Assembly: GCA_041751215.1 (NCBI GenBank)
Contig: JBGSXW010000005.1
Span: 3,664 to 67,663 of the forward strand
DNA from: Candidatus Saccharimonadales bacterium
GTDB taxonomy: Bacteria > Patescibacteriota > Saccharimonadia > Saccharimonadales > JBGSXW01
Reading direction: 5' to 3'
DNA length: 64,000 bases
The notes beneath the pieces were generated by a model. That model saw only the letters and a list, made by a program, of their open reading frames with translations, did not search any database and had not been told where the DNA came from. Positions within the stretch are counted from its first letter, which is position 1. Each line of letters begins with the position of its first letter. Below are positions 500 to 47,224 of this stretch, one piece after another. The position numbers and the translations under genes are program-made.

Positions 500-3400
500 A
501 TGGCAAACCTTTTTGGAAAAAACAAACTACGTGATAAAGCACTGCGATTAGACACTGAGAGCCTAGAAGACAAAATCGCAATTGTTAAAACATGGCATCA
601 CGACTACCACAACGGTAGCCTCAAAAAAGATAAGGAAACCTCTCGCGAACAAGCCTACAATTCAGACTTTTTCATCAAGATTCTCGGCTACAAAGAAAAA
701 CCATCTGTTCCATATAGCTTAGAACCAAAGGCAACCACTGAAAAAGGTCAGTTGCCTGATGCGGTCTTAGGTTTCACAGATGTTACGAAAGGCATTGTTA
801 ATATTGCCGCTGCAGTTGAGCTAAAAGGTGCATCCGTTGAACTTGACCGGCCACAACGCCGCGAGGGTAACATGAGCCCTGTCCAGCAAGGGTTCAAGTA
901 TAAGAGCCAGTATCGCAATTGTCCGTTTGTGATTGTGAGTAATTTCTGGGAGTTTCGTCTCTATCACGATAACCAACTAGACTACGAGCTTTGGACACTC
1001 GACGATCTGATTGACCCTAAAGATGACTACATTAAGTTCAAAACCTTCTACACCCTTATCCATAGCGATAATCTCACAAGTCCGAAGGGTTCTAGCAAAA
1101 CAGAGGACTTATTGAGTGATGTTCGTCTTGAGCAGGAAGAAATCGGTAGAAAATTCTATAAAGTATACGGTCAGGCACGTCATGAACTATTGCGTGATAT
1201 TTATAAGAAAAATGAGCATATAAAAACTGATATTGATACCGGCATCGAAAAGGCACAAAAAATTATTGACCGTATTGTTTTTGCTTGTTTTGCCGAAGAT
1301 CGAGGTTTACTTCCTGACGATACATTGCAGCGAGTTATTAAGGCAGCAGATACTTCTACGTTTGGCGGGTCTTTATGGTCTACCTTTAAGGCGTTCTTTG
1401 AAGCGATTGACGCAGGTAGCGAGAAACTTGATATCCCAGATGGTTACAATGGCGGCCTATTTGCACATGACTCAGTGTTAAATAGTCTCCAGATTAGCGA
1501 TGATGCTTTGCGTTCCGTCGCTAATATTAGTAACTACAATTTCGCCGAAAGCCTGAGTGTTACCATTCTTGGTCATATCTTTGAACAATCCATAAGCGAC
1601 CTAGAGGAAATAAAAAATAAGGTTAATGAAAGTCACAGTCTCAATACATTGCAGCAGTCTCGACGTAAGAAGGATGGCATATTTTATACTCCTGACTACA
1701 TAGTTCGTTACATCGTAGATAACTCACTAGGCACTTACTTGCGTGAATACGAGGAGCGATTCAAGCAAGAGTTTAGCCTCAAAGGTGATATCAACGACAA
1801 AAATTATGAGAAACGCGAGAAGCAGGCTTACAGCAAGTACCAAGAATTTCTGCAAAATGTGAAGGTTGTTGACCCTGCTTGTGGTTCTGGTGCGTTTCTT
1901 GTCTACGTGTTTGACTACTTGCTAGCGGAAAACAAGCGGGTTGCGAGCATACTTGGTAACAACCTTTTCTCGAGTGAAGACTATATAAAGTCAATTCTAC
2001 AAAACAACATTTATGGTGTTGACCTAAATGAGGAGTCAGTTGAGATTACTAAGCTTTCACTATGGCTTAAGACTGCTCAAAAAGGTAAGAAACTTACTGC
2101 TCTTGATGACAATATCAAATGCGGTAATAGCTTGATTGACGATCCTACTATAGCTGGTAGCAAAGCCTTCAATTGGCAAGAACAATTTGCGGATATTTTC
2201 AAAGATGGTGGGTTTGACATAGTTGTAGGCAACCCACCGTATGGTGTTAGTTTTAGTGCCGAAGAAAAAGCATACTTGTCCAAGTTTGATAATCTTGTGT
2301 CAGATTACGAAGCCTATATTTATTTCATATCACTTGTAAAGAAACTAGTAAAACCTGCTGGGATGCTATCCTACATATTCCCAAATACTTTCCTATCGAC
2401 ACTGTACGGTAAGAAGTACCGAGAGCAGCTTTTCTCAAATTATTCAGTTTTTGAAATGGTTGATTTATCGCGTGACCCAACATTTAGTGATGCTAGCGTT
2501 CGCACAGTAATCGTTAGCATTAAAAATTCTTCTAAAAACTATAGTTCACAGCTTAATGTCATAGACATAAGTAAAAATATTGTCTCATTTGCAAAGTATA
2601 GTAAGGATGACTTGTTGAAGAATAGTGAGAATCTACTAGTCCTCTTTACGCGGAGTGACGAAGCCAGTGCGTTAGTACAAAAAATACTAAGACAATCTAA
2701 GCCACTCAAGGACTACTTTTCAATCTCTCAGGGCTTAATACCCTACGATAAGTATCGCGGGCATGATGAGCATACGATTAAAAATCGTATCTGGCATTCT
2801 GATACTAAGAAAGATGAAACATATCGTCGAGAGCTTAAGGGCGGTGATATTACTCGATACTCACTCAACTGGAATGGTGGCTTATGGATTAGCTATGGTG
2901 ATTGGCTTGCAGCACCTCGTGAACCTAAGTTTTTTAGAGAGCCACGAATACTTGTCCGGGAAATCACCGATGATCAGCTTTACTGTGTATTTACAGATGA
3001 GGAATATTACAATACGCCATCATTAATTAATTGTGTAGGTAATAAGGGCGTTGATCAAATGTCAATCCTCGCAATTATGAATTCAAAACTCCTAGGATGG
3101 TATCATAACAACACTTCACCGAAGGCTAACAAGGGATTATTTCCAAAAATTCTCGTCAATGACGTTCGCAACCTACCAATAGTTACACCTACCAACAGTA
3201 AAGAGCTGTCCAGTAGGGCTGCAGTTATGCTGAATTTAAATAACAAGCTCGAAAGTAATTCTCAACACTTTCAAAACCTCCTATCCAGCGAATTCAAGTT
3301 AGATAAGTGGCCCACCAAACTATCAAAGTGGTGGAGACTTGAATTTACTGACCTTGTGACAGCATTAAAACTTAAGTTGTCTCTTCAGCAAAAAGATGAG

Positions 3401-3541
3401 CTGTTGCAGCTTTTTGAAAAGTATCGCCTTGAATGCTCGGAGCTTGACTTAAAAATTAATCAATTCGACCGTGAAATCGACCAGCTTGTCTACGAACTTT
3501 ATGACCTCACTAATGAAGAAACTAACCTTATAGAAAAATAA
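500..3541 (+). CDS. type IIG restriction endonuclease / N6-adenine DNA methyltransferase (MmeI-like fused enzyme)
   Basis: 1013 aa. N-terminal PD-ExK-like motif (PDAVLGF...AAAVELKG). SAM motif I VVDPACGSGAFLV. Catalytic motif IV VVGNPPYG. Long C-terminal specificity-like region. Confidence 0.85.
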   Translation: MANLFGKNKLRDKALRLDTESLEDKIAIVKTWHHDYHNGSLKKDKETSREQAYNSDFFIKILGYKEKPSVPYSLEPKATTEKGQLPDAVLGFTDVTKGIVNIAAAVELKGASVELDRPQRREGNMSPVQQGFKYKSQYRNCPFVIVSNFWEFRLYHDNQLDYELWTLDDLIDPKDDYIKFKTFYTLIHSDNLTSPKGSSKTEDLLSDVRLEQEEIGRKFYKVYGQARHELLRDIYKKNEHIKTDIDTGIEKAQKIIDRIVFACFAEDRGLLPDDTLQRVIKAADTSTFGGSLWSTFKAFFEAIDAGSEKLDIPDGYNGGLFAHDSVLNSLQISDDALRSVANISNYNFAESLSVTILGHIFEQSISDLEEIKNKVNESHSLNTLQQSRRKKDGIFYTPDYIVRYIVDNSLGTYLREYEERFKQEFSLKGDINDKNYEKREKQAYSKYQEFLQNVKVVDPACGSGAFLVYVFDYLLAENKRVASILGNNLFSSEDYIKSILQNNIYGVDLNEESVEITKLSLWLKTAQKGKKLTALDDNIKCGNSLIDDPTIAGSKAFNWQEQFADIFKDGGFDIVVGNPPYGVSFSAEEKAYLSKFDNLVSDYEAYIYFISLVKKLVKPAGMLSYIFPNTFLSTLYGKKYREQLFSNYSVFEMVDLSRDPTFSDASVRTVIVSIKNSSKNYSSQLNVIDISKNIVSFAKYSKDDLLKNSENLLVLFTRSDEASALVQKILRQSKPLKDYFSISQGLIPYDKYRGHDEHTIKNRIWHSDTKKDETYRRELKGGDITRYSLNWNGGLWISYGDWLAAPREPKFFREPRILVREITDDQLYCVFTDEEYYNTPSLINCVGNKGVDQMSILAIMNSKLLGWYHNNTSPKANKGLFPKILVNDVRNLPIVTPTNSKELSSRAAVMLNLNNKLESNSQHFQNLLSSEFKLDKWPTKLSKWWRLEFTDLVTALKLKLSLQQKDELLQLFEKYRLECSELDLKINQFDREIDQLVYELYDLTNEETNLIEK

Positions 3542-3546
3542 TAGAA

Positions 3547-4098
3547 ATGGGCAAATTAGAGATTTTAGATGTGTTATTAAGCAATATGGCTGTTTCTATC
3601 GGTAGAAACATACAGACGATTGAATCCATTGCGACAATCGCTGCTATTTGCGCTGGTCTTTGGTGGTTCTATAAAAGACGAGAAAAAGCTCCCAGGGCTA
3701 ATGTAGAACACCAAGTTAAGTTCATTGACCTAAAAAATGGAACTGTCTATGTGGGTGTTCATGTAAGCATTCAAAATACCGGCAATGTGATAATACGGCC
3801 AAAGGTCGAACAGAATCCCTCAAGCGTTGTAGTTGTTGAAGAACTTATGCCATACCTCAATAAGAAGCTTGAGTCACAGGAGCTATCGCCTGAGTATAAA
3901 ATGGGCTTTCTTGGGTCACGGACTTTTCCGCCAAAGATATGCATAGAGCCAGGAGAGAAGCAATCAATTCTATTCGAGTTTGTAATTCAGGGCAGTACTA
4001 AATCGATTAAAGTTTATTCACATATAGATAACAGCTATAATGGTGGTATAGGTTGGGACGCAACAACAATTCATGAGGTAAGATATGAGCGAGAATGA
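3547..4098 (+). CDS. hypothetical membrane protein
   Basis: 183-aa ORF 6 nt after the RM stop; one N-terminal hydrophobic helix (IATIAAICAGLWWFY). Confidence 0.5.
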   Translation: MGKLEILDVLLSNMAVSIGRNIQTIESIATIAAICAGLWWFYKRREKAPRANVEHQVKFIDLKNGTVYVGVHVSIQNTGNVIIRPKVEQNPSSVVVVEELMPYLNKKLESQELSPEYKMGFLGSRTFPPKICIEPGEKQSILFEFVIQGSTKSIKVYSHIDNSYNGGIGWDATTIHEVRYERE

Positions 4099-5123: not shown

Positions 5124-5501
5124 ATGCCAAGCAACATCCAACTCCAACCCATCCGCAATCGAAGGGACCGGCGTCGAGCAGCTCAGTACGGCAATTCCCT
5201 GTTCGGGCTCGGTCTCCTTCCGGAAGAAGGCCTCACAAGCGGACAGAAGTTCACCTTCTGCGGCTATCTGATCCAGTACTTCGATGGTCGATTGGTTTCG
5301 CCGTCGAGAGATGGTCAATCCAACTTCTACCGAAGCAAGGTCACGTGCTTCTGCCCGTGCTGTGGCGAGGAGATGAGCGAACTGTTCAACTTCGACACCG
5401 AATGGACCGAGGTTCATCAGCACATGTGCGGAGAGCGTGACGCCCACCAGTGTGACGCGCCCGAGCTGGCTGTACCGGATGCGAACTTCGCTTCCGTCTG
5501 A
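5124..5501 (+). CDS. small CxxC/zinc-ribbon-like protein, paralog 2 (GC-rich cassette 1)
   Basis: SD-like GAGGCGG upstream; motifs SGQKFTFCGY, CPCCGEEM, TEW, and a second Cys pair MCGERDAHQC. Confidence 0.55.
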   Translation: MPSNIQLQPIRNRRDRRRAAQYGNSLFGLGLLPEEGLTSGQKFTFCGYLIQYFDGRLVSPSRDGQSNFYRSKVTCFCPCCGEEMSELFNFDTEWTEVHQHMCGERDAHQCDAPELAVPDANFASV

Positions 5502-5558
5502 CATCATCCACCGTGCGCCGGCAGGAACCACTCTTTCCCAAGAGACTCCTGCCGGCGC
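5499..5558 (+). repeat. conserved 3' module of cassette 1 (TGA-CATCATCCACC + 40-nt nested hairpin CGGCAGGAACCACTCTTTCCCAAGAGACTCCTGCCGGCGC)
   Basis: The 40-nt core 5519-5558 is identical to 6599-6638. Confidence 0.8.
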
Positions 5559-5825: not shown

Positions 5826-6578
5826 ATGTTCAAGTTCATCAGCAAGCTGTTCAAGAAGAAGTCGGAGGAATCGGCCTACAAGATCTGGGGTCGCCACGAG
5901 CTGCCGCTCCCCAAGGGCCCAAACAGCACCTGGACGGACCGCCTGATCGGTCAGGAGTTCGTGATCGACGGCTACAACTTCGTGATCGTCGGGGAATCGA
6001 ACGCCCACGAGGGGATCTCGGCCCGTCTCGAACTTCCGTGCAAATCCTGTGGCCAGCCACATCGCTTGTGGCTCAGCGTCACCGCGACCTGGGATGATGT
6101 GCTGATGACGATCTTGAGCTTCGCCGAGAAGAGCTGCGACGACTGCAACCAGGTGCTCAACGGTGATATCGACCGCGTCGAAGAGGAGATGGCGAAGAAC
6201 GTCGAGGAGTGGAAAGGCATCGAGAAAGCTCTCGTGGCTTCCGGCCTCGACCTCGATTCCCTCGACCTCTTGGTCAACGACTCCGGCGAAGTCGACTGCG
6301 TCAGCCAGTTCCTCTGGCTCAAGTCTGGCTGGGTACCGCTCTGGCTGTACAGCCGTCGTGGTTTCCCAAGGGATCTGAGCAAGATAAACGAGCTCAAGCA
6401 CATGCTCGGCGTCAACGCCCACATCGAGGGAAACCTGATCTGCTTCTCGCCGATCCATGTGATGCGACCCAGTCGGATCGAAGAGTTCAACGAAGAGCTG
6501 GCAGAACTCCGCAAGCACCAGAACACCATGGAAGCCCACCGCCTCGCCCGCGCGTCGCGCAACACGAGCTCCATCTGA
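5826..6578 (+). CDS. CxxC/zinc-ribbon-like protein, paralog 3 with a C-terminal extension (GC-rich cassette 2)
   Basis: ATG preceded by AGGGAG; motifs IGQEFVIDGY, CKSCGQ, TATW, CDDC; 250 aa. Confidence 0.55.
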   Translation: MFKFISKLFKKKSEESAYKIWGRHELPLPKGPNSTWTDRLIGQEFVIDGYNFVIVGESNAHEGISARLELPCKSCGQPHRLWLSVTATWDDVLMTILSFAEKSCDDCNQVLNGDIDRVEEEMAKNVEEWKGIEKALVASGLDLDSLDLLVNDSGEVDCVSQFLWLKSGWVPLWLYSRRGFPRDLSKINELKHMLGVNAHIEGNLICFSPIHVMRPSRIEEFNEELAELRKHQNTMEAHRLARASRNTSSI

Positions 6579-6638
6579 CCATCATCCACCCCTTGCGTCG
6601 GCAGGAACCACTCTTTCCCAAGAGACTCCTGCCGGCGC
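6576..6638 (+). repeat. conserved 3' module of cassette 2
   Basis: TGACCATCATCCACC plus the same 40-nt hairpin as 5519-5558, followed by a T-run. Confidence 0.8.
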
Positions 6639-6664
6639 ATTTTTCTTTTCATCGCCCTTTTCCA

Positions 6665-6854
6665 CGCATCAGCTAAAACTCCTGAATTTGGGAGGGAGAA
6701 ACCCGGCGTAGCGAGGACTGTCCGCCAGCCGGCGGACGGGTTCCGCAGCCGCCCGAGTCCTTGGGTGAGCCAAGCTCATGAGAGTTTTTACAGCAGCGGG
6801 AAAGTTTTGAGCCACTTTTTAAAAAGTGGCGACCACCCCCGTCGTGGAAACGAC
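6665..6854 (-). repeat. element A, copy 1 (subfamily A1)
   Basis: Near-identical over long stretches to 47225-47395, and reverse-complement homologous to 19134-19311 and 55449-55636. Contains the palindrome GCCACTTTTTAAAAAGTGGC (6811-6830). Confidence 0.8.
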
Positions 6855-6879
6855 AAGCAAATTTAAGTTCTTAAAACGC

Positions 6880-12987: not shown

Positions 12988-13902
12988 ATGAACTTAAGTA
13001 ACGTTATCGTCGACTTTTTAGAGCATTTAGAAATCGAGCAAAATCGCTCGCAAATGACAATTGCCAATTACCACCACTACCTTATGCGTTTAGTTGAGTT
13101 TAGTGACGATGTTGATATAAGCAAGCTAGACGCCGAAGTAATACGTCGATGGCGCCTTTGGCTCAATCGATACAAAGATGCTCACGGGACGGAACTATCT
13201 AAGACTACTCAGAACTACCACTTAATTGCGCTGCGCAGTTTGCTTCGCTACTGCATGAAAAGAGATATCAAAACCCTCAGCCCAGATAAGATTGAGTTAG
13301 CCAAAGTCAGCCGAAAACAGGTTACATTCCTAAGTATCGAAGAAGTTGAACGACTGCTAGACCAGCCTGATCTTAGTAAGCTAACAGGGATGCGAGACCG
13401 TGCAATTTTAGAACTACTCTTCTGCGGGGGCCTCCGAGTGTCAGAACTTGTTAACCTAAATATCGATCACATTAACCTAAAACGATTAGAGTTTACGGTC
13501 CGCGGAAAAGGCCAAAAAGACCGCCCGATCTTTATTAGTGAACAAGCCGGTGAAGCAATTGGACGCTATCTTCAGGCCCGTCAAGATAACTTTCGACCCC
13601 TGTTTATCCACGCTGGCGGAACGCAAAGTGCGTTAGACGAAGGCGAATACACAAGGTTGAGTACAAGGAGTGTTCAAAGACTAGTTAGTCGCTACGCTAA
13701 GCTTGCTGGAATTACGAAAAAAGTCAGCCCACATACTTTGCGTCACTCGTTTGCCACCGACCTATTGATGAACGGGGCCGACCTGCGCAGCGTGCAGTCT
13801 TTGCTGGGACACAGCAATATTGGCACCACCCAGATTTACACTCACATTACCGACCCTCACCTGCGCGACGTGCACAAGAAATTCCATGGTAAAAGCCGAT
13901 AG
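12988..13902 (+). CDS. tyrosine site-specific recombinase XerC/XerD family
   Basis: C-terminal HTLRHSFATDLL..GADLRSVQSLLGHSNIGTTQIYTH. Confidence 0.85.
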   Translation: MNLSNVIVDFLEHLEIEQNRSQMTIANYHHYLMRLVEFSDDVDISKLDAEVIRRWRLWLNRYKDAHGTELSKTTQNYHLIALRSLLRYCMKRDIKTLSPDKIELAKVSRKQVTFLSIEEVERLLDQPDLSKLTGMRDRAILELLFCGGLRVSELVNLNIDHINLKRLEFTVRGKGQKDRPIFISEQAGEAIGRYLQARQDNFRPLFIHAGGTQSALDEGEYTRLSTRSVQRLVSRYAKLAGITKKVSPHTLRHSFATDLLMNGADLRSVQSLLGHSNIGTTQIYTHITDPHLRDVHKKFHGKSR

Positions 13903-17032: not shown

Positions 17033-17851
17033 TTAGCCAGTGAGCAGAATGCTTGCACTATACCAATCAACTAGAGATTGGCCCCAAAGCACGGCAATAA
17101 AGAAGCCGAGGATTAAGTATGGACCAAATGGCACTTGTTGGTTACGGCTAAGTTTATGGGTACTCATCAACACAATCGATACAAAAGAACCAAGTAAGCT
17201 AGCCGTAAAGATCGCAAGCAATGCTAGTTGAGGTCCGAGCATAAGGCCCATCAAAATACCAAGCTTAACGTCGCCGCCGCCGATCCACCGACCCTTAGAC
17301 GCAGCAAACAATGCCCAAAAGATTCCAGCACCGCACAGCAGCCCTAAGGCAACGTGTCTTAGCTGATCTTGCAGTCCTCCATATAGCAGTACTTCTAGGC
17401 CAAGATAGCCCGCTGCTAAGGCAATTAACGGGAAGAGAATCCGATTTGGCAGAATCATCCACTTCAAGTCATAGACGAACAGAGCGACTAAGCCCACTAA
17501 AATAACCTCCCAAACTACGAAGCGCAGCAAACCAGCATCTACAAAGCCGTCTGGCCACCAAACATACGAAATCACCAAGCACAGCGCTGTAGCGGCCTCA
17601 ACTAAGGGGTACTGAGCGCTTATTGGCTTCTTGCAGTAACGACAGCGCCCTTTAAGGCTTAGCCAGCTTAAAACTGGCACTAGGTCTTTAGTCTCTAGTT
17701 GATGTTTGCAGCTAGGACACATGGAGCGCCCGCGTACAACCGAGAACTTCTTTGACTTAGGCTTGAGCTCCTGCTGTCGCAGTCGCCAAACCAGGGCATT
17801 TACAAAGCTTCCCAGCGCAAGCCCAAATACAGCTATAGCAAAAATTATCAT
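17033..17851 (-). CDS. pilD: prepilin peptidase (A24 family)
   Basis: N-terminal CPSC...CRYC zinc motif; polytopic; GGGDVKL aspartyl site. Confidence 0.85.
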   Translation of the reverse strand: MIIFAIAVFGLALGSFVNALVWRLRQQELKPKSKKFSVVRGRSMCPSCKHQLETKDLVPVLSWLSLKGRCRYCKKPISAQYPLVEAATALCLVISYVWWPDGFVDAGLLRFVVWEVILVGLVALFVYDLKWMILPNRILFPLIALAAGYLGLEVLLYGGLQDQLRHVALGLLCGAGIFWALFAASKGRWIGGGDVKLGILMGLMLGPQLALLAIFTASLLGSFVSIVLMSTHKLSRNQQVPFGPYLILGFFIAVLWGQSLVDWYSASILLTG

Positions 17852-17925: not shown

Positions 17926-18414
17926 CTAAGCGTTGTCCTCGCAGTAGCTACCGCCACCCTCAAGCATAATAACAACAGCTACGTTTCTTGCGCCGCCTGA
18001 GGCCAAGCCAGCAAGAGCTGATCCGGACTGACATACAAGTCCCGATCCAACCACGATGTCGCCTGGTTCAGGGTCATAGGTGCCACCAGCGTATGCAGCA
18101 AGATAAACAGTTACGTTTTCCACCTGGTAGTTATTGCCAGTAGTAGGATCGGTTATTCCCTCTGGCAAATAATCTTCCATTATTGGATCAAACGTTGCAT
18201 TGTTAAGAATAGCGGGGTACTGTCCGTTATTGTTGCCGGCATAAGTTTCAAGTGCGCCCAGTATCCTAGCGGCGTCCTTCTTTCGCTGCGTATCACGACG
18301 TGATTTTTGCAGTTGTGGCAAGGCCAAGAAGACTATCAGAAAGATCAATCCTGCGATTGCAAGGACGAGCACGACCTCGATGATCGTGAAGCCGCGCTCG
18401 TTTTTCTTCAACAT
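17926..18414 (-). CDS. type IV pilin (paralog 1)
   Basis: ERGFTIIEVVLVLAIAGLIFLIVFLALPQ; C-terminal Cys pair. Confidence 0.8.
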   Translation of the reverse strand: MLKKNERGFTIIEVVLVLAIAGLIFLIVFLALPQLQKSRRDTQRKKDAARILGALETYAGNNNGQYPAILNNATFDPIMEDYLPEGITDPTTGNNYQVENVTVYLAAYAGGTYDPEPGDIVVGSGLVCQSGSALAGLASGGARNVAVVIMLEGGGSYCEDNA

Positions 18415-18434: not shown

Positions 18435-18938
18435 TTATTGGTTATCCTGGCAGTAAGAACCAGTTTCTAATCGCATCACTATAGCGATATCTCGGCTACC
18501 AGAACCAGTTGCAATGGCTTCGCCAGAACAGACACCGTTAGTAGCATATCGGAAGTTACCTGGTGTGGTCCCTGCGCTACCTACTCCAAAAGTTGAAGTA
18601 GTTGGTGTTGTGCCAGTTGATGGTGGGTTAACACCATAACCAAGACCGCTGGTTGGGTCTAAGTAGTTGTCCGATAGGTACGTTGTTGCAAAGCTGGTGA
18701 AGCTGTTTGCTCCACTGGCAGCAGCAGCTGGATATACTCCGCTGTTGTTACCGGCATAGCTCTCAAGTGATGAAAGCATACGGCCAACGTCATTCTTGCG
18801 CTGTGTGTCGCGTCGTGAACGTTGTAATTGTGGCAAGGCTAGGAAGACGATCAAAAAGATCAATCCTGCGATTGCCAGTACTAATACGACTTCGATGATG
18901 GTGAAGCCTGATTCTTTACGATTGGTTGTTTTTTGCAT
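18435..18938 (-). CDS. type IV pilin (paralog 2)
   Basis: ESGFTIIEVVLVLAIAGLIFLIVFLALPQ; ATG at 18938 chosen because AGGAGGG lies 8 nt upstream (the track ORF extends to 18965). Confidence 0.8.
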   Translation of the reverse strand: MQKTTNRKESGFTIIEVVLVLAIAGLIFLIVFLALPQLQRSRRDTQRKNDVGRMLSSLESYAGNNSGVYPAAAASGANSFTSFATTYLSDNYLDPTSGLGYGVNPPSTGTTPTTSTFGVGSAGTTPGNFRYATNGVCSGEAIATGSGSRDIAIVMRLETGSYCQDNQ

Positions 18939-18988
18939 GTTTGCCACCCTCCTGTTAGTTGGCATTACATATAAATGCTCATGCCCTG

Positions 18989-19016
18989 ATTGTACTAAAG
19001 CTTAACCGTATTGCAA
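18989..19016 (-). promoter_or_regulatory. sigma70-like promoter candidate for the pilin genes
   Basis: Minus-strand TTGCAA-16 nt-TACAAT about 50 nt upstream of the pilin ATG. Confidence 0.4.
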
Positions 19017-19072
19017 TAGATAAAATCAGATGGATGCAATAACTATCCACAGGGTGCCTGCAAGGCGGCTAT

Positions 19073-19126
19073 GACACCTTTTAAAAAAGGTGCCCCAAAA
19101 CCTTCCCGTTGCTACCAAAACATAGT
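19073..19126 (+). repeat. partial element A head (palindrome GACACCTTTTAAAAAAGGTGCC + CCAAAACCTTCCCGTTGCTACCAAAACA)
   Basis: Reverse-complement match to 47341-47393. Confidence 0.7.
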
Positions 19127-19133
19127 TTCTTTT

Positions 19134-19311
19134 GTCGCTTGCCAGCGACGTGGCATTGCCACTTTTTAAAAAGTGGCTCAAAACTACCCCGCTGCTACTA
19201 AAACACTCATGAACTTGTTTCGCACAGAACTTGGGTTACTGCGGAGTACGTATGAACAGTCCTCGTCACGCCATGTTCTGTCCTTACAAGTTCAGAGATT
19301 TTAGTAGATGC
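19134..19311 (+). repeat. element A, copy 3 (subfamily A2)
   Basis: Hairpin GTCGCT-TGCC-AGCGAC; palindrome 19158-19177; closing helix CTACTAAAA../..TTTTAGTAG; core GCGGAGTACG..ACAGTCCTCGTCACGCC. Confidence 0.8.
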
Positions 19312-19350
19312 GGGTTTATCCGAACATCTGACCCTATTTTCAGGGATGAA

Positions 19351-19430
19351 GCACAAGGAAGTTGTGAGTAGTGGAAGGGTTGCTGTGCGTATAGCACTGC
19401 GCCCTGAGCAAGGGAACAACTAACGCAGAG
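19351..19430 (+). repeat. element B, copy i (intergenic, divergent)
   Basis: GCACAAGGAAG....GTGC-GTATA-GCAC hairpin....AACGCAGAG; aligns with 55728-55802. Confidence 0.6.
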
Positions 19431-19490
19431 CTCGTGGTGCGAGCTGCTCCGCAGCTCGGCAGACGAGCGGTGATTCGCCCTGAAAAGAGG

Positions 19491-20708
19491 TCAGACGGCT
19501 ATGGATTGGCCAACTAGGCCGTAAACTGGTAGCAAAATCGCCGCCACCAACAGTCCCGCCACCAAGGCCAAAACAATCATTAACACTGGTTCAATGGTCG
19601 AGGAAATCGCTTTAATTTCGTCATCAAGTTCTCGCTCGTAGTAAAGGGCGGTCTTTTCAAGCATCTTGTCTAAGCTGCCAGACTGCTCACCAATTCGGAT
19701 CATCTGCGGAACCAATGGCAAAAAGTTCTGATCGTCTTTTAGAGACTCAGACAGCGCCGTACCAGACTTAACTCTCTCGGACGCATGCATAACTGATTCT
19801 TTAATATGTACGTTATTTACAGCGTCTCCGGTAATGCGAAGCATTTCTAGCATCGGCACTCCACTGGCAGTTAGCGTTGTAGCGGTTCTAGCAAACCGAG
19901 CCATGTACATCTTCATAAACAAACGACCAAATATCGGAGCTGTCATCTTTAGCCTGTCACCGGCTCTACTGCCGCTACTGGACCTAAAGTATTTGGCGAT
20001 CATGTAGCCAACAATTCCAAAAAGAACGATTAGCGCATACCAGAACTTGATAATAAACTTAGCGATTGCCAGCATAAAAGCTGTAATAAATGGCAGTGAT
20101 TGTCTCAAGTCAACGTAAAGCTGCTCAACCTGGGGCAAGACAGTGGTTAACATGAAGATCACAACGCCACAAATAACCACCAACACAATGATTGGATAGA
20201 TCATGGCTCCACGAACTTTGGCAATAACTTCGGCGTCTTTTTCTTGCTGATCAGCGATGCGCTCCAGGGCTTTATCGAGCGTACCCGACGCCTCACCGGC
20301 TGCCACCAAGCTAACAAAAACTGTGTTAAATACCTTAGGGTGTTTTGCCAGCGAGCTAGCAAAAGTGCCACCGGCTTCAACATCTGTAATAACCTCGCTG
20401 ATTATCACCTGTAGAGGCTTGCTATCAGTTTGCTCTGACACGGTTCTAAGCGACTGCACCAGCGGAAGACCAGAGTTAATCATGGTCGAAAGCTGACGAG
20501 AAAACAGAACTTTATCTTTAGACTTAATGCGGTTTCCAAACCGACCCTTCAGACTGGTGTCTTTGGCGTCTTTGAGCTTGATTTCAATTGGCGCCAAACC
20601 CTCTTTGCTGAGTTGCTTGGCAGCTGCCCGCTCGTTATCAGCCTGCATCAGTGCGGTGATTTTTTCACCGGTCTTGGAATCTCTGGCTGTATATTCAAAA
20701 GTTAACAT
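19491..20708 (-). CDS. pilC: type IV pilus assembly platform protein (GspF family)
   Basis: 405 aa, two GspF-type repeats, three TM segments. Confidence 0.85.
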   Translation of the reverse strand: MLTFEYTARDSKTGEKITALMQADNERAAAKQLSKEGLAPIEIKLKDAKDTSLKGRFGNRIKSKDKVLFSRQLSTMINSGLPLVQSLRTVSEQTDSKPLQVIISEVITDVEAGGTFASSLAKHPKVFNTVFVSLVAAGEASGTLDKALERIADQQEKDAEVIAKVRGAMIYPIIVLVVICGVVIFMLTTVLPQVEQLYVDLRQSLPFITAFMLAIAKFIIKFWYALIVLFGIVGYMIAKYFRSSSGSRAGDRLKMTAPIFGRLFMKMYMARFARTATTLTASGVPMLEMLRITGDAVNNVHIKESVMHASERVKSGTALSESLKDDQNFLPLVPQMIRIGEQSGSLDKMLEKTALYYERELDDEIKAISSTIEPVLMIVLALVAGLLVAAILLPVYGLVGQSIAV

Positions 20709-20714: not shown

Positions 20715-21782
20715 TTAGCCGCGCATTAGGCGGTCAAGCTCCTCGATATCAACCGCAAAGTTGCGGGCTTCTTCGTAAGTTATGGTTCCGGCGTGAATTA
20801 GCGATACTAGTGTCTTGTCCATCGATTGCATGCCGTGCTCAGCACCGGTTTGAATTACGGCATCAAGCTGGTGAGATTTGCCTTCACGGATGATGTTACG
20901 AACAGCTGGCGTAGCTACCATGATTTCAGCCGCCACCATTCGCCCACCGCCGATAGCCGGAACTAGACGCTGCGACACAATGGCCTGCAACATGGCGGAG
21001 AGCTGAGCCCGAATCTGTGGCTGCTGGTGTGGCGGGAAAACGTCAATCATACGGTCAATCGACTGAGCAGCCGAGTTGGTGTGAAGGGTTGCAAACACCA
21101 AGTGGCCAGTTTCGGCAATGGTTATGGCTGCAGCAATAGTTTCGAGGTCGCGCATCTCACCGATCAGCACAACGTCGGGGTCTTGGCGCAAGCTTGAACG
21201 CAAAGCTGCCGAGAATGAATAGGTGTCGTAGTGAACTTCTCGTTGCACTACTACAGACTTCTTGGATTTGTGCGTAAACTCAATTGGATCTTCGATGGTA
21301 ACAATGTGCTCAGCACGCTCGGTGTTAATCTTGTCGATAATTGCAGCCAGCGTTGTTGACTTACCTGAACCGGTTGGACCGGTTACAAGAACTAGGCCAC
21401 GTGGATACTCGGCAAATGAGCTAACTACTTGAGGCAGACTCAGCTCGTCGATGGTTTTAATCTCATTAGGAATAAGGCGAAGTGCTGCCGCCATGTTTCC
21501 TCGCTCATGAAAAGCGTTAACACGGAAGCGACCAAGATCGCCAAAGGCAAACGAAAAGTCGAACTCTTTATCTTTAATAAGTATCTGCTTTTGGTCCTCG
21601 TCTAAAATTGCAAAGACTAGAGATTCTACTTGTTCTTCATTAAGATTTTCGGCACCGCTAACGGCTTTAAGTGAGCCATCAACACGGAGCATTGGCGGTA
21701 AGCCAACTTGCAAGTGAAGGTCAGAAGCTTTTTGCTTGATGACTTCTTCTAGTAGTAGTTCGATTCTTAGATTATTCGCCAT
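20715..21782 (-). CDS. pilT: twitching-motility retraction ATPase
   Basis: Walker A GPTGSGKST; TIEDPIE; Walker B/Asp box DPDVVLIGEMRD; His box ATLHTNSA; ~355 aa. Confidence 0.85.
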   Translation of the reverse strand: MANNLRIELLLEEVIKQKASDLHLQVGLPPMLRVDGSLKAVSGAENLNEEQVESLVFAILDEDQKQILIKDKEFDFSFAFGDLGRFRVNAFHERGNMAAALRLIPNEIKTIDELSLPQVVSSFAEYPRGLVLVTGPTGSGKSTTLAAIIDKINTERAEHIVTIEDPIEFTHKSKKSVVVQREVHYDTYSFSAALRSSLRQDPDVVLIGEMRDLETIAAAITIAETGHLVFATLHTNSAAQSIDRMIDVFPPHQQPQIRAQLSAMLQAIVSQRLVPAIGGGRMVAAEIMVATPAVRNIIREGKSHQLDAVIQTGAEHGMQSMDKTLVSLIHAGTITYEEARNFAVDIEELDRLMRG

Positions 21783-21805: not shown

Positions 21806-23617
21806 TTAGGCGCTGTCAATGGCAGCGACGCGATTAACTTCCTCGAGCGTTGTCATCCCAGCCAGAGCCTTCAGGTAGCCGTCCTCGCGCATGGTAATCA
21901 TACCTTGCGCTTGCGCTGCTCGTTGAATCTCACTACTGGTTGAATGATTAAGGATTAACTCCTCAATGTGCTCGTCGATCTCGAATACCTCATAGAGGCC
22001 GAGACGACCTTTATAGCCGCCCGGGGCAGATCGCGTGTCTTTGCCCTTATATAAAGTATAAGCATTTTGGTTAGCCAAGGGCAAGCTCTCGTATCCGAGG
22101 TCCTTGGCAACCGCCGACATCTCTTCCTGGTTTTTGGGCAAAATGTGACCGATAGTTTCATTGATAGCCTGAGTCTCAACCTTGCTAGACTGATAGACCT
22201 CAGGCTCGCCGCCGATTCGTCTAACCAATCGTTGACCGATAACAGTATTAACCGTCGACGCAATCAAAAATGGCTCGATTTGCATGTCGAGAAGTCGAGG
22301 CAAGATGCCGGCAGCCGAGTTGGTGTGAAGCGTAGAGAAAACCAAGTGACCAGTCAAAGCTGCCTGAGTTGCCAGCTCGGCGGTTTCTTTGTCGCGGATC
22401 TCTCCGACCATCACTACGTCTGGGTCTTGGCGCAAGATTGAGCGCAAACCAGTAGCAAAAGTTAGACCAACTCCAGGGTTAATCTGAATCTGGTTAACGC
22501 CGCTAATTTTGTACTCTACCGGATCCTCGAGCGTCACAATGTTGATTTGCTCGTTCTTAATTTCCTTGATCATGGCGTACATCGAGGTCGACTTACCAGA
22601 ACCAGTTGGGCCGCTGGTTAGAACCATGCCGTTAGGACTAAGCAGGCCTTTTTTAATGGTTCGTAGTGCTCGGCCGGTGTAGCCCATGTCCGCCAAATCC
22701 ATGCTAGTGCCGGTTTTATCCAGCAAACGAATTACTATCTGCTCGCCCCAAACGGTTGGCGAAATCGCAATACGCAGGTCGATCTCTTTTTGCTTCACTT
22801 TAAGAGTAAACTGTCCGTCCTGAGGAACTCGGTGTTCATCAATCTTTAAGTTTGAGAGAATCTTTACTCGAGACACCAGCGCGGCTTCGGTGCTTTTGGG
22901 CAGATGCATGACTTCGCGCAGCACGCCGTCGACTCGAACTCGAATTTTGACTTCTTTTTCGGTTGGCTCGATGTGAACATCGGAAGCTTCGCTATCGGCA
23001 GCAAATTCCAAAATTGTAGTTAGCGCGCGGCTAATCGGCGAATCTTGTGAAACCGTAACAACTTCTTTATCACGGCCCAGCTCGGTGGTGGCGTCCGCTA
23101 GTTCTTTGGTATCGATACCTTTTATGCCTCCGCCGGTGGCTTGTCCTAAGGCGTCTGTAACTCCCCGCTTTATATCAGTGCCATACTGGCTAATAACATG
23201 CTTAATTCCCTCCTCGGAGGCCATATAGACCTTAAGGGGGCGTCCAATCTTCTGACTTAGGTAGTCGGCTGCCTGAACGTTATCGGCATCTAGCATGGCA
23301 ACTACTAGCCGATTCTGCATTTCTCCTAGCGGAACCGCCATAAAACGCTCAGCCGCATCTTGTGGCAGTAGATTTAAGATATCTGGGCTAACAGTTGCTT
23401 TGCTTAAATCAACGTATGGCAGATTTAAAACTTTTGCCGTTGCTTTGGTTAGTTGTTCCTCGCTAACTTTGTGGTTCTTAATAAGGTACGTTAGCAGCGG
23501 CTCGCGCAGCTGGCTGGCCGTTTTTTTGGCATCATCTAGTTGGGGCTTGGTCATTGCCCCTTGGGTTACAAGCAGATCGTAGACCTGCTGCTGATTGGTT
23601 TCAGATAGAACGCTCAA
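21806..23617 (-). CDS. pilB: type IV pilus assembly ATPase (GspE family)
   Basis: N-terminal MshEN/GSPII-like repeats; GPTGSGKST; LEDPVE; DPDVVMVGEIRD; STLHTNSA. Confidence 0.85.
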   Translation of the reverse strand: MSVLSETNQQQVYDLLVTQGAMTKPQLDDAKKTASQLREPLLTYLIKNHKVSEEQLTKATAKVLNLPYVDLSKATVSPDILNLLPQDAAERFMAVPLGEMQNRLVVAMLDADNVQAADYLSQKIGRPLKVYMASEEGIKHVISQYGTDIKRGVTDALGQATGGGIKGIDTKELADATTELGRDKEVVTVSQDSPISRALTTILEFAADSEASDVHIEPTEKEVKIRVRVDGVLREVMHLPKSTEAALVSRVKILSNLKIDEHRVPQDGQFTLKVKQKEIDLRIAISPTVWGEQIVIRLLDKTGTSMDLADMGYTGRALRTIKKGLLSPNGMVLTSGPTGSGKSTSMYAMIKEIKNEQINIVTLEDPVEYKISGVNQIQINPGVGLTFATGLRSILRQDPDVVMVGEIRDKETAELATQAALTGHLVFSTLHTNSAAGILPRLLDMQIEPFLIASTVNTVIGQRLVRRIGGEPEVYQSSKVETQAINETIGHILPKNQEEMSAVAKDLGYESLPLANQNAYTLYKGKDTRSAPGGYKGRLGLYEVFEIDEHIEELILNHSTSSEIQRAAQAQGMITMREDGYLKALAGMTTLEEVNRVAAIDSA

Positions 23618-29718: not shown

Positions 29719-29892
29719 GTTGCTCACTGTGATTTTGAGGTGGAAATCTCGTTAATCGCGGCACTTTTACAAACTGGGCTATCCAGGGAACAATGACTGC
29801 AAGATCAAGATTGTGGCCATCGTCCCCTGGATAACCATGGGAAAAACCGGCGCCTAACCAAGCGCCCCGAACCTCAGAAAGAGGTGATTTTG

Positions 29893-30594
29893 ATGAAGCA
29901 TCCCCGCTTCCTCATCGGAGCGCTCGCCATCATGGCGCTGTCGCTCTTCGCAACCCCGGCCTTCGCGGCCACCGCAACCATCAGCCCCGCCATGGGGCCG
30001 GCTGGCACCATCGTCAACATCAGCGGTGGCGAGTGCCTGCCGACGGAGGAGTTCCCGGTCCATCCTCGGGTCGGTTTCCTCGTCCGCGACGACGACGGCA
30101 ACGAGATCCACTTCGACCTCAACGTCGATGTCGACGAAGAAGGCATGTGGAGCTTCAGCTACGAGATCCCTCTGGTGGATACGGAGTACCTGGAGTTCCT
30201 CGCGTTCTGCAGCGGTGGAAACGGTACGGATCCGGCTCAACTCGTCGACTACGACAGCCTGATCTTCACCTACGCCGAGATCGGCCCGCCTCCGACCACG
30301 GAACCCGAGCCGACCACGACCACCACCGAGGCACCGCCGACGACCGAGCAGCCGACCACCACGGTCGAGCAGCCCGAACCCACGACGGCCCCGACGGTCG
30401 CACCCACGGTCATCACCAACCCCGAGTTCACCTCGCCTCCCGGCGGCGGTGTCCAGACGGACGGTGGTGTCCCTGATGAGGCTGCGCACGAGCAGAACAA
30501 CGCGCTCGTGTTCGGGATCATGGCCGGGTTCTTCGCCCTCATGCTGTTCCTGACCAGGAACAAGAAGGCCAAGAAGGTCAACAGCACGGAGTAG
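29893..30594 (+). CDS. GC-rich secreted surface protein: signal peptide, Pro/Thr-rich linker, C-terminal hydrophobic helix + basic tail
   Basis: ATG after AGAGGTG; signal peptide MKHPRFLIGALAIMALSLFATPAFA; PTTEPEPTTTTTEAPPTTEQPTTT; C-terminus ALVFGIMAGFFALMLFLTRNKKAKK. Confidence 0.7.
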   Translation: MKHPRFLIGALAIMALSLFATPAFAATATISPAMGPAGTIVNISGGECLPTEEFPVHPRVGFLVRDDDGNEIHFDLNVDVDEEGMWSFSYEIPLVDTEYLEFLAFCSGGNGTDPAQLVDYDSLIFTYAEIGPPPTTEPEPTTTTTEAPPTTEQPTTTVEQPEPTTAPTVAPTVITNPEFTSPPGGGVQTDGGVPDEAAHEQNNALVFGIMAGFFALMLFLTRNKKAKKVNSTE

Positions 30595-30804
30595 TTCTTC
30601 CCAGCAATGCCCAGCAAGCGAGCGGTCCGGGTGGGTCATTTGATTACAGACTCAACATCTGAACATCATCTGATCCACCCGGCCCTCGCAACACACTTTT
30701 CTAGGATAGATACAGATCTCACATCTGATTAACAGATGAGAAACCTATACCTGAACTAGAAACAACAGAGGTGACACTTTATTTCCACCCCTGTTATAAT
30801 GGTA

Positions 30805-30833
30805 TTGCTTTTTATTGACTAATTTGGTATAAT
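30805..30833 (+). promoter_or_regulatory. promoter candidate (TTGCTT-17 nt-TATAAT with TG extension)
   Basis: AT-rich block upstream of a ~250-nt leader preceding the sortase gene. Confidence 0.45.
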
Positions 30834-31091
30834 ATACAAGTTCAGTTGGGAGACTCTTAACTGATGAAGGATCAACATAATGATCCGACCTTACCAAGCT
30901 TTGGCAGCAAATTGTCTAGGGATTCTTACCCGGAACTACACCCCGCCCTCCCTGGGAGCACACCATCCAATCTATTCCATCGTACTCCTCATTCGCTTAA
31001 ATAATCGTGAGAATCATCTGAGAACTTTCCGCGTAGGACTCCCTAGACAAGGGACATTCGTCATCTGGCGAATTACAACAAAGGAGCAACA

Positions 31092-31835
31092 ATGCGCTTC
31101 CCCAAGCACATCCTGTTTCTGGTCTGGTTGACACTCGTGTTTTCCCTGACCAGCGGGTCGGTGCAGCAGGAGCGCTTCATGCTCCCTCCGCAACCCACCC
31201 AGGCGGCCGCAGAAGCACCTGCGACCACCACAAGCACCACCGAAAGGCGGGATCGTGTACCAACGTCCCAGGCGTCGACCAGACCCAGCAACCCGGCAAC
31301 AACAGCTCCAGCGCAGCCGACAACGACAGCGCCGGAAACCACGCCGGAACCCGCGGGAATCCCCCGCGTGGTGGTCGAATCGATTGGGGTGGATGAACCG
31401 CTCGTCGTAGGCAACTACTTCGACGAGAACGGCAACATCTCCCCGCCGTGGCAGACAGCCAACCTCTACGGGGGCGGCTCCATGCCTGGACAGGTTGGCA
31501 CGAGCCTCATCGCAGGCCACGTTTCGTCATCGACCTATGGACCCGATGTGTTCTACAACCTCGGGAACATCCAGATCGGCGACATCGTACAGGTCAGCGA
31601 TGGCACCACCAACTTCACCTATCAGGTGACGCTCATCCGCGTTCAGGACAAGCGCCTGCTCGCAACCAGCGAAGCCCCTGGTGAAGATCCCGACGCCGTC
31701 ATTCAGTGGTCTGACATGGAACGCGTGACCGATTGGTCCGTGCTCTACCTGATCACCTGTGGTGGCGAGTTCGGAAATGTCCGCCCGGGTAGTTTCGATT
31801 CGAACATCATCGTTCGAGCCGAGATCGTCCCCTGA
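31092..31835 (+). CDS. sortase family transpeptidase (class F-like), GC-rich
   Basis: AAGGAG SD; N-terminal TM; catalytic His context LIAGHVS; catalytic Cys motif LYLITCGG; conserved Arg near the C-terminus (IIVRAE). Confidence 0.8.
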   Translation: MRFPKHILFLVWLTLVFSLTSGSVQQERFMLPPQPTQAAAEAPATTTSTTERRDRVPTSQASTRPSNPATTAPAQPTTTAPETTPEPAGIPRVVVESIGVDEPLVVGNYFDENGNISPPWQTANLYGGGSMPGQVGTSLIAGHVSSSTYGPDVFYNLGNIQIGDIVQVSDGTTNFTYQVTLIRVQDKRLLATSEAPGEDPDAVIQWSDMERVTDWSVLYLITCGGEFGNVRPGSFDSNIIVRAEIVP

Positions 31836-32004
31836 CCCCGCTCAGCCAGAGCAAAACCAGGGCTGGAGGCCGCATGAGGAGAAGGTTGATCGTACTTAAC
31901 GATCCCCTTTACACTCCCTTGCGCGCCTCCAGTCCTAATCACACCCTTTGATTATTCGAACAGTTGGCCTAGCAAGGCTTAAGCCAAGAGTTCGAGAAAT
32001 TAAG

Positions 32005-32559: not shown

Positions 32560-32583
32560 TTTTGTTTTAACTTTAGTTTTTAT

Positions 32584-32612
32584 ATACTAGCATACTTCTT
32601 GTGTTTTGGCAA
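32584..32612 (-). promoter_or_regulatory. promoter candidate TTGCCA-17 nt-TAGTAT within a 26-nt repeat
   Basis: 26 nt TAGCATACTTCTTGTGTTTTGGCAAG at 32588-32613, identical to 33176-33201. Confidence 0.45.
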
Positions 32613-32659
32613 GAGCCTGCTAGCGACTCTTAAGCCACGGCTCAGAGCGCAGGAATAGT

Positions 32660-33133
32660 TTACTGCTCTTCTGTTGGCTCTTCGGGCTCTTGGTTGCTCT
32701 CTAGCAGCTTAGCGTCTTGCTCAGGGATAGTTAGAGAATTAGGGTCCTGAGCGTAGTGCATCCTTAAGCGCTCTTGCTCCGATGGCGTTGTAGCCTTTGC
32801 CGAGAGATACTTAAAGGCCGCGCGTTTTTTGGGATCAATGGATGAATAGGCGTCGGCATTGTAGTTAGCGTAGCGCTCAGCCTGATCACCAACCGTATCA
32901 GACAAGCCAGCTTCAAGAGATTTTACAAAGTTACCGCTCAAATCATTTTCTGCCAGAAACTGTTCGGCTTCGTCGGCTAATTGTGAACCTTGTGCATCGG
33001 CTTGAGTAGTTAAGTGTGCATCCGCCACAAGAAGCCTTGCTAGATCCTCAACGACTGGCTCAGTAGCCTCGCGAACTGCTTCGGCTGCGTTTTCTAGGTA
33101 GGCTTGTTCACGTTCTGGCGGGATCTGATTCAT
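32660..33133 (-). CDS. hypothetical acidic protein
   Basis: ATG at 33133 (MNQIPPERE...) chosen; the track ORF extends to 33181 through the promoter box. Confidence 0.5.
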   Translation of the reverse strand: MNQIPPEREQAYLENAAEAVREATEPVVEDLARLLVADAHLTTQADAQGSQLADEAEQFLAENDLSGNFVKSLEAGLSDTVGDQAERYANYNADAYSSIDPKKRAAFKYLSAKATTPSEQERLRMHYAQDPNSLTIPEQDAKLLESNQEPEEPTEEQ

Positions 33134-33171
33134 TGTTGTTGAGCTTGTTTGTATCTTATATTTACAAACAT

Positions 33172-33200
33172 ACATTAGCATACTTCTTGTGTTTTGGCAA
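33172..33200 (-). promoter_or_regulatory. promoter candidate TTGCCA-17 nt-TAATGT within a 26-nt repeat
   Basis: Second copy of the box described at 32584-32612. Confidence 0.45.
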
Positions 33201-33220
33201 GGTTGGTAGTTTAGTGGTGA

Positions 33221-34027
33221 CTAAAATCTGCTGCGCGCTTCTCTTAGCTCTTCTTTGACCAACTGCATACGCTCTTTTGAACCTCTAAATGTGCCTTCTG
33301 CTATCAAACGCTCTACCAATCTAATCTGACCCCTAGTTTCAATCGTCGGTAGTTCAGAGTGAGGCTTGCTGTCTAAAAATCTTTGCAGCTCGCTTGTAAG
33401 CTCGTCGAATTCACTAGTCCGACCAGAGTGCCCATTATTTTTTCGGTGTTCGGTATTGCGCCGAATCATCGCCAGCCGCGAGGACGTAGAAATAACTTCC
33501 GGCTTAGGGACTATGGTCTTTGCTGGTTGAGAGGGCTCCGGCTTAGCTATCGGCTCTACAACTTCTGCCTCTTGAGTTATCGCTTCAGGCTCATTCTCTT
33601 CGTCTTCAAACATAGCGGCCACCAGACCTCTCAGCTCTTCATCGCTCTTGCCAATTGCTATGTCTATGATGATGCTTACATCCTGGGCTAGATCTGAGTC
33701 TGCGTCGGGCTCGTCCTCCAACGCTATCCTGATGAAATCATTGCAAAAAATTATCATGTCGGCGTAGCGCCGATCAAGAATCTGGTTGCCAATAAGGCGA
33801 CCGTCTACGTCTTGAGCAATCGCCAGCAGAGCTTTTGGATACTCGCCGAGCTCCCCGCTAGCAGGCTGCTTCTGCGCAAATTCCTTAACCACACCAAGAT
33901 AAGCCTCGGGGTTGGTGGCTAGCACTCGGATTAGATGCTCGTCGACTTCATCCGCATCATTTGCTGCCACTAGGCTCTCGACTTCACTCGAAACTAGCTG
34001 CTCATCGCTCACAGAACTGCTGCTCAT
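33221..34027 (-). CDS. hypothetical acidic protein
   Basis: ATG at 34027 preceded by GGAGGGG; the track ORF extends to 34111. Confidence 0.5.
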   Translation of the reverse strand: MSSSSVSDEQLVSSEVESLVAANDADEVDEHLIRVLATNPEAYLGVVKEFAQKQPASGELGEYPKALLAIAQDVDGRLIGNQILDRRYADMIIFCNDFIRIALEDEPDADSDLAQDVSIIIDIAIGKSDEELRGLVAAMFEDEENEPEAITQEAEVVEPIAKPEPSQPAKTIVPKPEVISTSSRLAMIRRNTEHRKNNGHSGRTSEFDELTSELQRFLDSKPHSELPTIETRGQIRLVERLIAEGTFRGSKERMQLVKEELREARSRF

Positions 34028-34119
34028 CGCCCCTCCGGTTTGTAAATTTATGTCCTGATTTTGGTTGATGACACAAGAAACGGCAAGCATGAGCGTAATC
34101 AACTGATACACTAGGCGCT

Positions 34120-47173: not shown

Positions 47174-47224
47174 ATTCCTGCTTTCGCAGGAATGACCTGC
47201 CTAGCGGCAGGCAGGCTGGAGCCG

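Follow-up and report, generated by a model that had tools for sequence, protein, structure and literature searches.

An apparent lineage-specific insertion of hairpin-forming repeat DNA between pilC and the pilin genes of a Saccharimonadales bacterium

Saccharimonadales depend on pili for epibiotic life. The question raised by this locus is why, in the type IV pilus cluster of one of these bacteria, the gene for the platform protein PilC is separated from the pilin genes by an unusually long spacer, and what that spacer is made of. The window, meaning the whole 64-kb stretch of DNA that was analysed, is a chromosomal segment of Candidatus Saccharimonadales bacterium, and the best homologues of its PilC are labelled Saccharimonadales or Saccharibacteria. 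Its pilus genes lie on the minus strand in the order pilB (21806–23617), pilT (20715–21782), pilC (19491–20708), the long spacer, two pilin genes (18435–18938 and 17926–18414) and a prepilin peptidase gene (17033–17851), as assigned from the list of ORFs and from Pfam (T2SSF for PilC, N_methyl for the first pilin). The start of the first pilin gene (MQKTTNRKESGFTIIE...) was placed at 18938 by homology with a close relative (locus L120), and an alternative upstream ATG at 18965 falls within the conserved pilin 5' UTR. Given this homology-supported start, the spacer covers 18939–19490 and measures 552 nt, a correction of the 525 nt in the original prediction.

A promoter scan of the minus strand recovered the sigma70-like pilin promoter that had been proposed at 18989–19016 (TTGCAA, a spacer of 16–17 nt and TACAAT), and this promoter is conserved in relatives. 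It is followed by a 5' UTR (18939–18988) with a small hairpin and an AGGAGGG Shine–Dalgarno sequence, also conserved in relatives as read from the sequences. The hairpin, GGCAT..ATGCC (18945–18985, minus strand), lies just upstream of the Shine–Dalgarno sequence, and its GCAT..ATGCC arms are kept in the two closest relatives, L120 (5270–5300) and L121. The second pilin gene is a paralogue of the first, recognised as a direct repeat of it; the two are 75% identical over 183 nt, whereas the three nearest relatives have only one pilin gene at this position, and the conserved promoter and 5' UTR are present for the first gene and missing from the second.

For comparison, the pil region was examined in the three closest relatives available, whose PilC proteins are 80, 70 and 69% identical to that of the window. 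Gene order is identical to that of the window in all three, and their pilC–pilin spacers measure 98, 89 and 117 nt, respectively, versus 552 nt in the window. The relatives' short spacer is itself conserved in the window, from 18939 to approximately 19025, as TTGCA(A/T), 16–17 nt, TACAAT, the UTR hairpin, AGGAGGG and ATG, and what differs is the distance between the pilC stop and the −35 box, about 20 nt in the relatives versus about 470 nt in the window. The repeat that makes up much of the extra DNA (element A, described below) has no copy anywhere in the relatives' 7–9 kb pil loci. Since a spacer of 89–117 nt with the same promoter and Shine–Dalgarno sequence is found in these relatives, the additional ~460 nt (roughly 19031–19490) constitute an insertion. 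The spacer thus appears to owe its length to non-coding repeat DNA, prone to form hairpins, that this lineage gained between the end of pilC and the −35 box of the pilin promoter, in agreement with the earlier proposal of a repeat block inserted at this place; the long spacer is absent from all three relatives and is not a conserved unique sequence, the outcome that would have spoken against that proposal.

The insert leaves both flanking genes in order. The stop codon of pilC abuts it, the PilC C-terminus is intact and unchanged in the alignment with its homologues, and the pilC reading frame and the conserved pilin promoter, which begins immediately downstream, are untouched. The pilin genes are thus physically separated from the assembly genes, as had been claimed, by ~460 nt able to form two hairpins of −60 to −74 kcal/mol, which lie between pilC and an intact pilin promoter.

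The inserted DNA that is repeated elsewhere in the window belongs to element A, which is present in the 64 kb as four full copies of ~200 nt and one 66-nt fragment, in both orientations and always between genes. The full copy in the pilC–pilin spacer (19128–19329; nhmmer E 4.7e-59) is accompanied by a plus-oriented copy between a minus-strand gene for a 570-aa protein and the plus-strand rpsT (55443–55645) and by two reverse copies, one between the convergent dapF and rnj (47208–47412) and one adjoining a DUF1761 gene (6648–6861), whose giant hairpin is partly decayed. The segment 19125–19345 aligns over its full length with 55441–55665 and with the reverse complements of 6630–6870 and 47195–47410. 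An nhmmer profile built from the four copies recovered exactly these in the window, with E values of 1e-51 to 1e-59, together with the fragment at 19057–19122 (E 1.6e-9), and nothing else except opposite-strand palindromic echoes of the same copies. The core pattern TGCGGARYNCGT-N2-20-ACAGTCCTCG had four matches in the window versus none in 100 shuffles. The copies are 62–76% identical to one another.

The expectation that a partial and a full A fill part of the spacer was thereby borne out. Of the parts of A, the truncated copy retains the AT-rich hairpin, the AAAAC..CCCG block and a single arm of the outer stem, and no more; it represents the subtype of the 47-kb copy, being identical to its tail at 26 of 26 positions (47361–47386), while the adjacent full copy has the other hairpin subtype. 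This difference points to separate events or recombination and not to one composite insertion; two A elements of different subtype thus came to lie side by side, and either one was truncated afterwards or the two recombined. An independent Logan short-read contig (L119) is identical across pilC, the neighbouring palindromic unit B and the first 68 nt of A, and ends inside A. Short-read assemblies typically break at repeats.

Read on the plus strand, the 19-kb copy of A begins with a small hairpin (19134–19149), the stem of which changes compensatorily between copies, followed by an AT-rich perfect palindromic hairpin (GCCACTTTTTAAAAAGTGGC, 19158–19177), a conserved block AAAAC..CCCGCT and a giant imperfect hairpin (19188–19314). 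At the apex of the latter sits the motif TGCGGA..CGT-(hairpin)-ACAGTCCTCG, here as TGCGGAGTACGTATGAACAGTCCTCG on the plus strand (19240–19265), a shortened variant of a motif shared across phyla. The predicted fold of this copy has an energy of −73.5 kcal/mol (z −6.8), and RNAalifold predicted 35 pairs for the four window copies, seven of them with double changes. Signs of a conventional transposition unit were sought at the ends of these copies. The terminal 30 nt matched the reverse complement of the other end no better than shuffles in three of the four copies, with p = 0.02 in the fourth, and the four junction pairs had no consistent target-site duplication. An integron attC site was considered and rejected, since the stem base, CTAC(T/C)AAAAC ... 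G/ATTTT(A/G)GTAG, fits neither the R'' (RYYYAAC) nor the R' (GTTRRRY) box.

The remainder of the insert, next to pilC, is B, a palindromic multi-stem unit of 158 nt (19333–19490) closed by an imperfect inverted repeat of ~22 bp (CCCTATTTTCAGGGATGAAGCAC / GGTGATTCGCCCTGAAAAGAGG), in which 19333–19355 pairs with 19469–19490. Its predicted folds have −71 and −61 kcal/mol on the two strands, with z-scores of −4.6 (plus) and −4.8 (minus), and it has no Rfam match. The hairpin CCCT-ATTTTC-AGGG, which the original prediction had listed as an extra region, turned out to be the 5' half of this long closing stem, pairing with CCCTGAAAAGAGG at 19478–19490.

Element A is one member of a much wider family. 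When the core pattern was scanned in one genome per species, at least 118 stretches matched; approximately seven of those listed are chance matches in coding regions, and the rest are the same kind of element. Hosts among the matches listed include Saccharibacteria, Parcubacteria, Gracilibacteria, Peribacteria, Rhodocyclaceae, Methylophilaceae, several gammaproteobacterial groups, Lachnospiraceae, Bacteroidota, Elusimicrobia and Myxococcota, and some genomes carry many copies (at least 13 stretches in one Rhodocyclaceae MAG and more than 20 in one gammaproteobacterial MAG). A member of the family is a long imperfect palindrome of ~35 base pairs, followed in many lineages by a short U/A-rich hairpin. 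Its general core is TGCGGAACTCGT-(variable hairpin)-(A/C)CTCARACAGTCCTCG, the complement of which reads CGAGGACUGUYUGAG-hairpin-ACGAGUUCCGCA; the window copies have a shortened variant, and this window subtype of the core was found nowhere else, a metagenome scan giving only four chance matches in coding DNA. On either side of the core lie long arms, complementary to each other, that differ completely in sequence from one lineage to the next, while the apical motif (26–42 nt, non-palindromic) is almost invariant, with a central stretch of ~35 bases nearly invariant across many phyla. Of 82 diverse copies, 66 have a long hairpin across the core; the mean number of pairs was 35, versus 14.7 when the flanks were shuffled.

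The family appears to be undescribed as such and is absent from Rfam. In Rfam 15, no family was found for A, either in the window (at gathering thresholds and at E <= 1–10) or at 23 loci from other phyla; the output consisted of tRNAs and spurious miRNA-type matches, of which MIR7533 and mir-4520 merely detect long hairpins. Strings of the core sequence matched only primer coincidences in the literature, and keyword searching yielded no description of the family. A viral origin found no support in 2.9 million viral contigs, which contained no core match. In the plasmid collection PLSDB, two records matched, one of them a 2.5-Mb Variovorax replicon, and they did so only to the small AT-rich hairpin module seen in the betaproteobacterial version, which is unannotated in them. 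No recurrent neighbouring protein was detected in the ORFs within 1.5 kb of the 118 listed loci, where the clusters obtained were spurious ORFs over the repeat itself and unrelated LysR regulators, and the copies in gut bacteria sit among housekeeping genes.

Several lineages have arrangements of their own. In an uncultured gammaproteobacterium (CAXBFG01; loci L034, L042, L076, L110 and others, e.g. L034:~3300–3820), a repeat of ~350 nt occurs in more than 20 copies, and A forms one module of it, next to a second conserved structured module, with inverted ends beginning GGTAGTG in some copies. The second module has a closing stem of 20 bp that covaries between copies, a core of GACCGTCTGACGACAGG..GTCGTCAGCCGAGCCTGTACANGGAYGTACG with AYGGAY-like loops and no Rfam match; a sub-threshold match to TwoAYGGAY lies elsewhere in L034 and is not part of the window element. 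In Rhodocyclaceae and Uliginosibacterium (L007:1760–2500; L027, L041, L067), convergent inverted pairs ~430 nt apart form super-palindromes of ~740 bp, and the outer AT-rich hairpin module of these elements (AACTTTCTTGTC..GACAAGAAAGT) occurs alone in Variovorax and Comamonas replicons. Two near-identical elements in the same purC context (L064 and L100) come from MAGs labelled Treponemataceae and Bacteroidaceae, a likeness more likely due to inconsistent binning or taxonomy than to cross-phylum transfer.

The reading that we favour, to which we assign a probability of roughly 60%, is that the insert is ~460 nt of lineage-specific, non-coding hairpin repeat DNA, composed of a full A, a 66-nt remnant of another A and the unrelated B, and that A is a foldback repeat comparable to REP and ERIC elements and mobilised in trans. 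A occurs in several copies, between genes, in both orientations, with a bias towards gene 3' ends and a patchy distribution; it is unlinked to any gene, absent from the orthologous sites of relatives and arranged in mosaics with other hairpins, which together form the signature of REP/BIME-, ERIC- or Correia-like repeats. A Pfam survey of the ~69 ORFs of the window found no transposase and, by way of recombinases, a Xer-type enzyme only (12988–13902). Since no mobilising enzyme, target duplication or high-identity pair of empty and filled sites was found, we infer mobility from the distribution only, and the mode of mobilisation and any insulating effect are likewise inferred.

By this reading, A elements would be non-autonomous and behave like REP/BIME, ERIC or Correia repeats. 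An enzyme whose gene lies elsewhere would place new copies between genes, with a preference for the 3' ends of genes, and the feature that it recognises is probably the apex of the hairpin, folded on single-stranded DNA, much as RAYTs recognise REPs; after insertion, the copies would decay. At the pilus locus, the two very stable hairpins after pilC may hinder read-through and 3'-to-5' decay, with the pilin expressed from its own promoter. By analogy with REP/BIME, the insert could plausibly make read-through out of pilC less frequent or the pilBTC message more stable. Its local meaning is modest: the oversized spacer of a type IV pilus cluster is accounted for, and the pilin keeps its ancestral promoter.

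The likeness to known repeats is partial in each case. The ERIC (IRU) elements of Enterobacteriaceae and Vibrio are imperfect palindromes of ~127 bp that are best conserved centrally, vary by internal indels and have no linked gene. A resembles them as a non-coding, intergenic, multi-copy long imperfect palindrome with the same central conservation, internal indels and lack of a linked gene, but no sequence similarity was seen, and A has a non-palindromic invariant apex and extra small hairpins. ERIC is also confined to a few gammaproteobacterial families, whereas A is spread over distant phyla, including Patescibacteria. REP/BIME elements, whose RAYT (TnpA-REP) is an HUH Y1 enzyme, stabilise upstream mRNA and attenuate read-through, and the REPs themselves are 20–40 nt long with a GTAG head. 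A shares with them the extragenic, multi-copy palindromes set in hairpin mosaics, each copy lying beside other hairpins, the enrichment at gene 3' ends, the lack of terminal repeats and target duplications and the presumed folding of single-stranded DNA. It differs in its length of ~200 nt, in having its conserved part at the hairpin tip and in the ends of the window copies, which lack a conserved GTAG (a GGTAGTG start was seen only in the gammaproteobacterial composite); in addition, no RAYT gene was found among the ~69 ORFs of the window scanned with Pfam, and REP sequences are lineage-specific, while A is shared across phyla. Correia (NEMIS) elements, which can change transcription and RNA processing of their neighbours, and other bacterial MITEs are, like A, foldback elements of 100–250 bp between genes, and the gammaproteobacterial relatives of A sit in a unit with inverted ends in some copies. 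Unlike them, the window copies have neither terminal inverted repeats nor a target-site duplication, and the conserved part of A is the apex, while in MITEs it is the ends, bound by the transposase.

This last difference weighs against a purely selfish repeat: ordinary MITEs and REPs are conserved at their ends, but what A shares across phyla is its apex, and a selfish repeat offers no explanation for that. A occurs at four sites in 64 kb of a reduced genome, and repeats from far-removed phyla have the same, almost invariant core. We consider, tentatively and with well under even odds, that the apical motif TGCGGAACTCGT-hairpin-CTCARACAGTCCTCG might be the active part of an undescribed, structured mobile element of cross-phylum distribution, either as a small ribozyme or processing signal or as the recognition hairpin of a trans-acting enzyme on folded single strands. 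If so, this would explain why the same 27 nucleotides recur in Patescibacteria, Proteobacteria, Firmicutes and Bacteroidota despite changing surroundings. A core that is a catalytic RNA or the handle of a mobilising enzyme would define a new class of elements and provide a marker for horizontal transfer into Patescibacteria; a core that is neither would make A one more family of selfish intergenic palindromes.

A related explanation, clearly less probable than the foldback repeat, is that A encodes a structured RNA, with the invariant apical internal loop functioning as a self-processing ribozyme or as the binding site of a conserved protein, and that it spread as an RNA-based or RNA-dependent element. 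The ~27 core nucleotides that are invariant from Patescibacteria to Proteobacteria include an asymmetric internal loop of 4 x 8 nt, which goes far beyond the needs of a hairpin tip. The closing stem, five variable pairs beside the core, covaries: 84% of cells are paired versus 72% in shuffles, and the covariation score is 0.312 versus 0.114 when shuffled, a value reached in none of 500 shuffles and much lower in slid-register controls. The low fold z-score of the 19-kb copy given above is in line with a structured RNA as well. In 65 of 79 copies, the whole element also has its more stable fold on the complement of the pattern strand, where G·A takes the place of a conserved C·U mismatch and tandem G·A pairs arise in one type of hairpin. 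The difference between the strands stems mainly from the constant core and not from the variable stems, and an assignment of the strand by folding energy was abandoned on that account, although a core that folds better on one strand with G·A pairs leaves room for a role at the RNA level.

The stems tell a different story. Selection on an RNA helix leaves a strong excess of G·U on one strand, whereas isolated mismatches in the variable stems (two Watson–Crick pairs on each side) numbered 29 G·T, 30 A·C, 30 C·T and 19 T·T, without any such preference, and a looser count gave 163 against 210. Strand-symmetric mismatches of this kind are the pattern expected of a DNA inverted repeat and not of an RNA helix. 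The sites of the family comprise 27 convergent, 35 tandem and 12 divergent intergenic regions, and the tandem sites are split into 17 co-oriented and 18 anti-oriented copies, so that no orientation bias relative to the flanking genes is apparent. Nor was a conserved promoter seen for the family, and the missing Rfam match and linked protein gene also count against an RNA. The core does not appear to fit the hammerhead or the hairpin ribozyme core when compared by eye; the same kind of comparison with known ribozyme cores, the K-turn, the sarcin–ricin loop, attC, dif and ssoA CS-6 gave no convincing fit. Taken together, these observations leave a structured RNA unlikely next to the foldback DNA repeat.

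It is less probable still that the block is a locally evolved terminator or mRNA stabiliser of the pilus operon, acting in cis on pilC and the pilin genes and not mobile. The block does follow the pilC stop directly, its giant hairpin ends on the gene strand with GCGGGG followed by TAGTTTTGAG, weak terminator-like matches were found within 18700–19800, and convergent and tandem sites are over-represented in the family. Across the family, at least four T in the 8 nt after the giant hairpin were counted in 26 of 81 copies, versus 15 for the A-count control; with a U-tract in only about one-third of the members, a terminator role is not general. In addition, none of the three nearest relatives has the block in its pilC–pilin spacer, and A occurs at three unrelated loci of the window, in both orientations and including a divergent promoter region.

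The original prediction had further described B as a divergent repeat element and held that the order A-then-B recurs at 55449–55802, so that A and B could be built or travel as one composite of ~370 nt. Only A aligns between the two loci, and the colinearity was not borne out: a local alignment of 19326–19490 with 55646–55878 scored 17, at the level of shuffles (16.3 ± 2.0; p ~0.39), so that the flanks of the two plus-strand copies are unrelated. Neither the window nor any other locus retrieved contained a paralogue of B, apart from the identical contig L119. The motif CTCCGCAGC at 19439–19447 had raised the idea that B is a degenerate inverted A, but nhmmer picked up nothing resembling A on either strand of B. 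The most fitting description of B is a palindromic unit of its own, present once, and not a repeat. A single mobile unit of A and B is therefore very improbable: the same side of A leads into further hairpin-rich sequence in all four window copies, and the gammaproteobacterial MAG does have a conserved second module after its A module within one repeat unit, but the four A-adjacent regions of the window are mutually unrelated, B lacks a second copy, and the A fragment next door belongs to another subtype.

Two of the sequences adjoining A in the window are small palindromes in their own right. One copy is flanked by a GC-rich hairpin of 48 nt (GCGCCGGCAGGAGTCTCTTGGGAAAGAGTGGTTCCTGCCGGCGC, minus strand), which is present twice (5511–5558 and 6591–6638; 96% identical), each time 10–13 nt after the stop of a plus-strand ORF (5124–5501 and 5826–6578), with the similarity of the two sites extending over the stop codons (..TCAGAYGGA..). 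Both hairpins lie in an island of higher GC (~4.3–6.7 kb; 0.52–0.54) with ORFs that have no Pfam match. The 47-kb copy is flanked by two short perfect hairpins (~47175–47214), and the hairpin ATTCCTGCGAAAGCAGGAATCTA located there matches at 23 of 23 positions in a Porticoccaceae MAG (L055:3544–3566) and at 21 of 23 in a gammaproteobacterium (L074), and may be a second small palindromic repeat of cross-phylum distribution.

Other parts of the window also stand out in composition or repetition. The first 4,100 nt have a low GC content (0.39–0.40 versus ~0.48 elsewhere), encode a 1013-aa type IIG restriction-modification enzyme similar to MmeI/Eco57I (500–3541) and were likely acquired horizontally. 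A direct repeat of 32 nt, 94% identical, at 32582–32613 and 33170–33201 lies just beyond the upstream ends of two adjacent minus-strand ORFs (32660–33181 and 33221–34111; no Pfam match) and may be a duplicated promoter or leader. The stretch with the highest GC content of the window (0.57; 29850–31850) has overlapping ORFs on both strands, a single one of which, a sortase (31092–31835), has a Pfam match.
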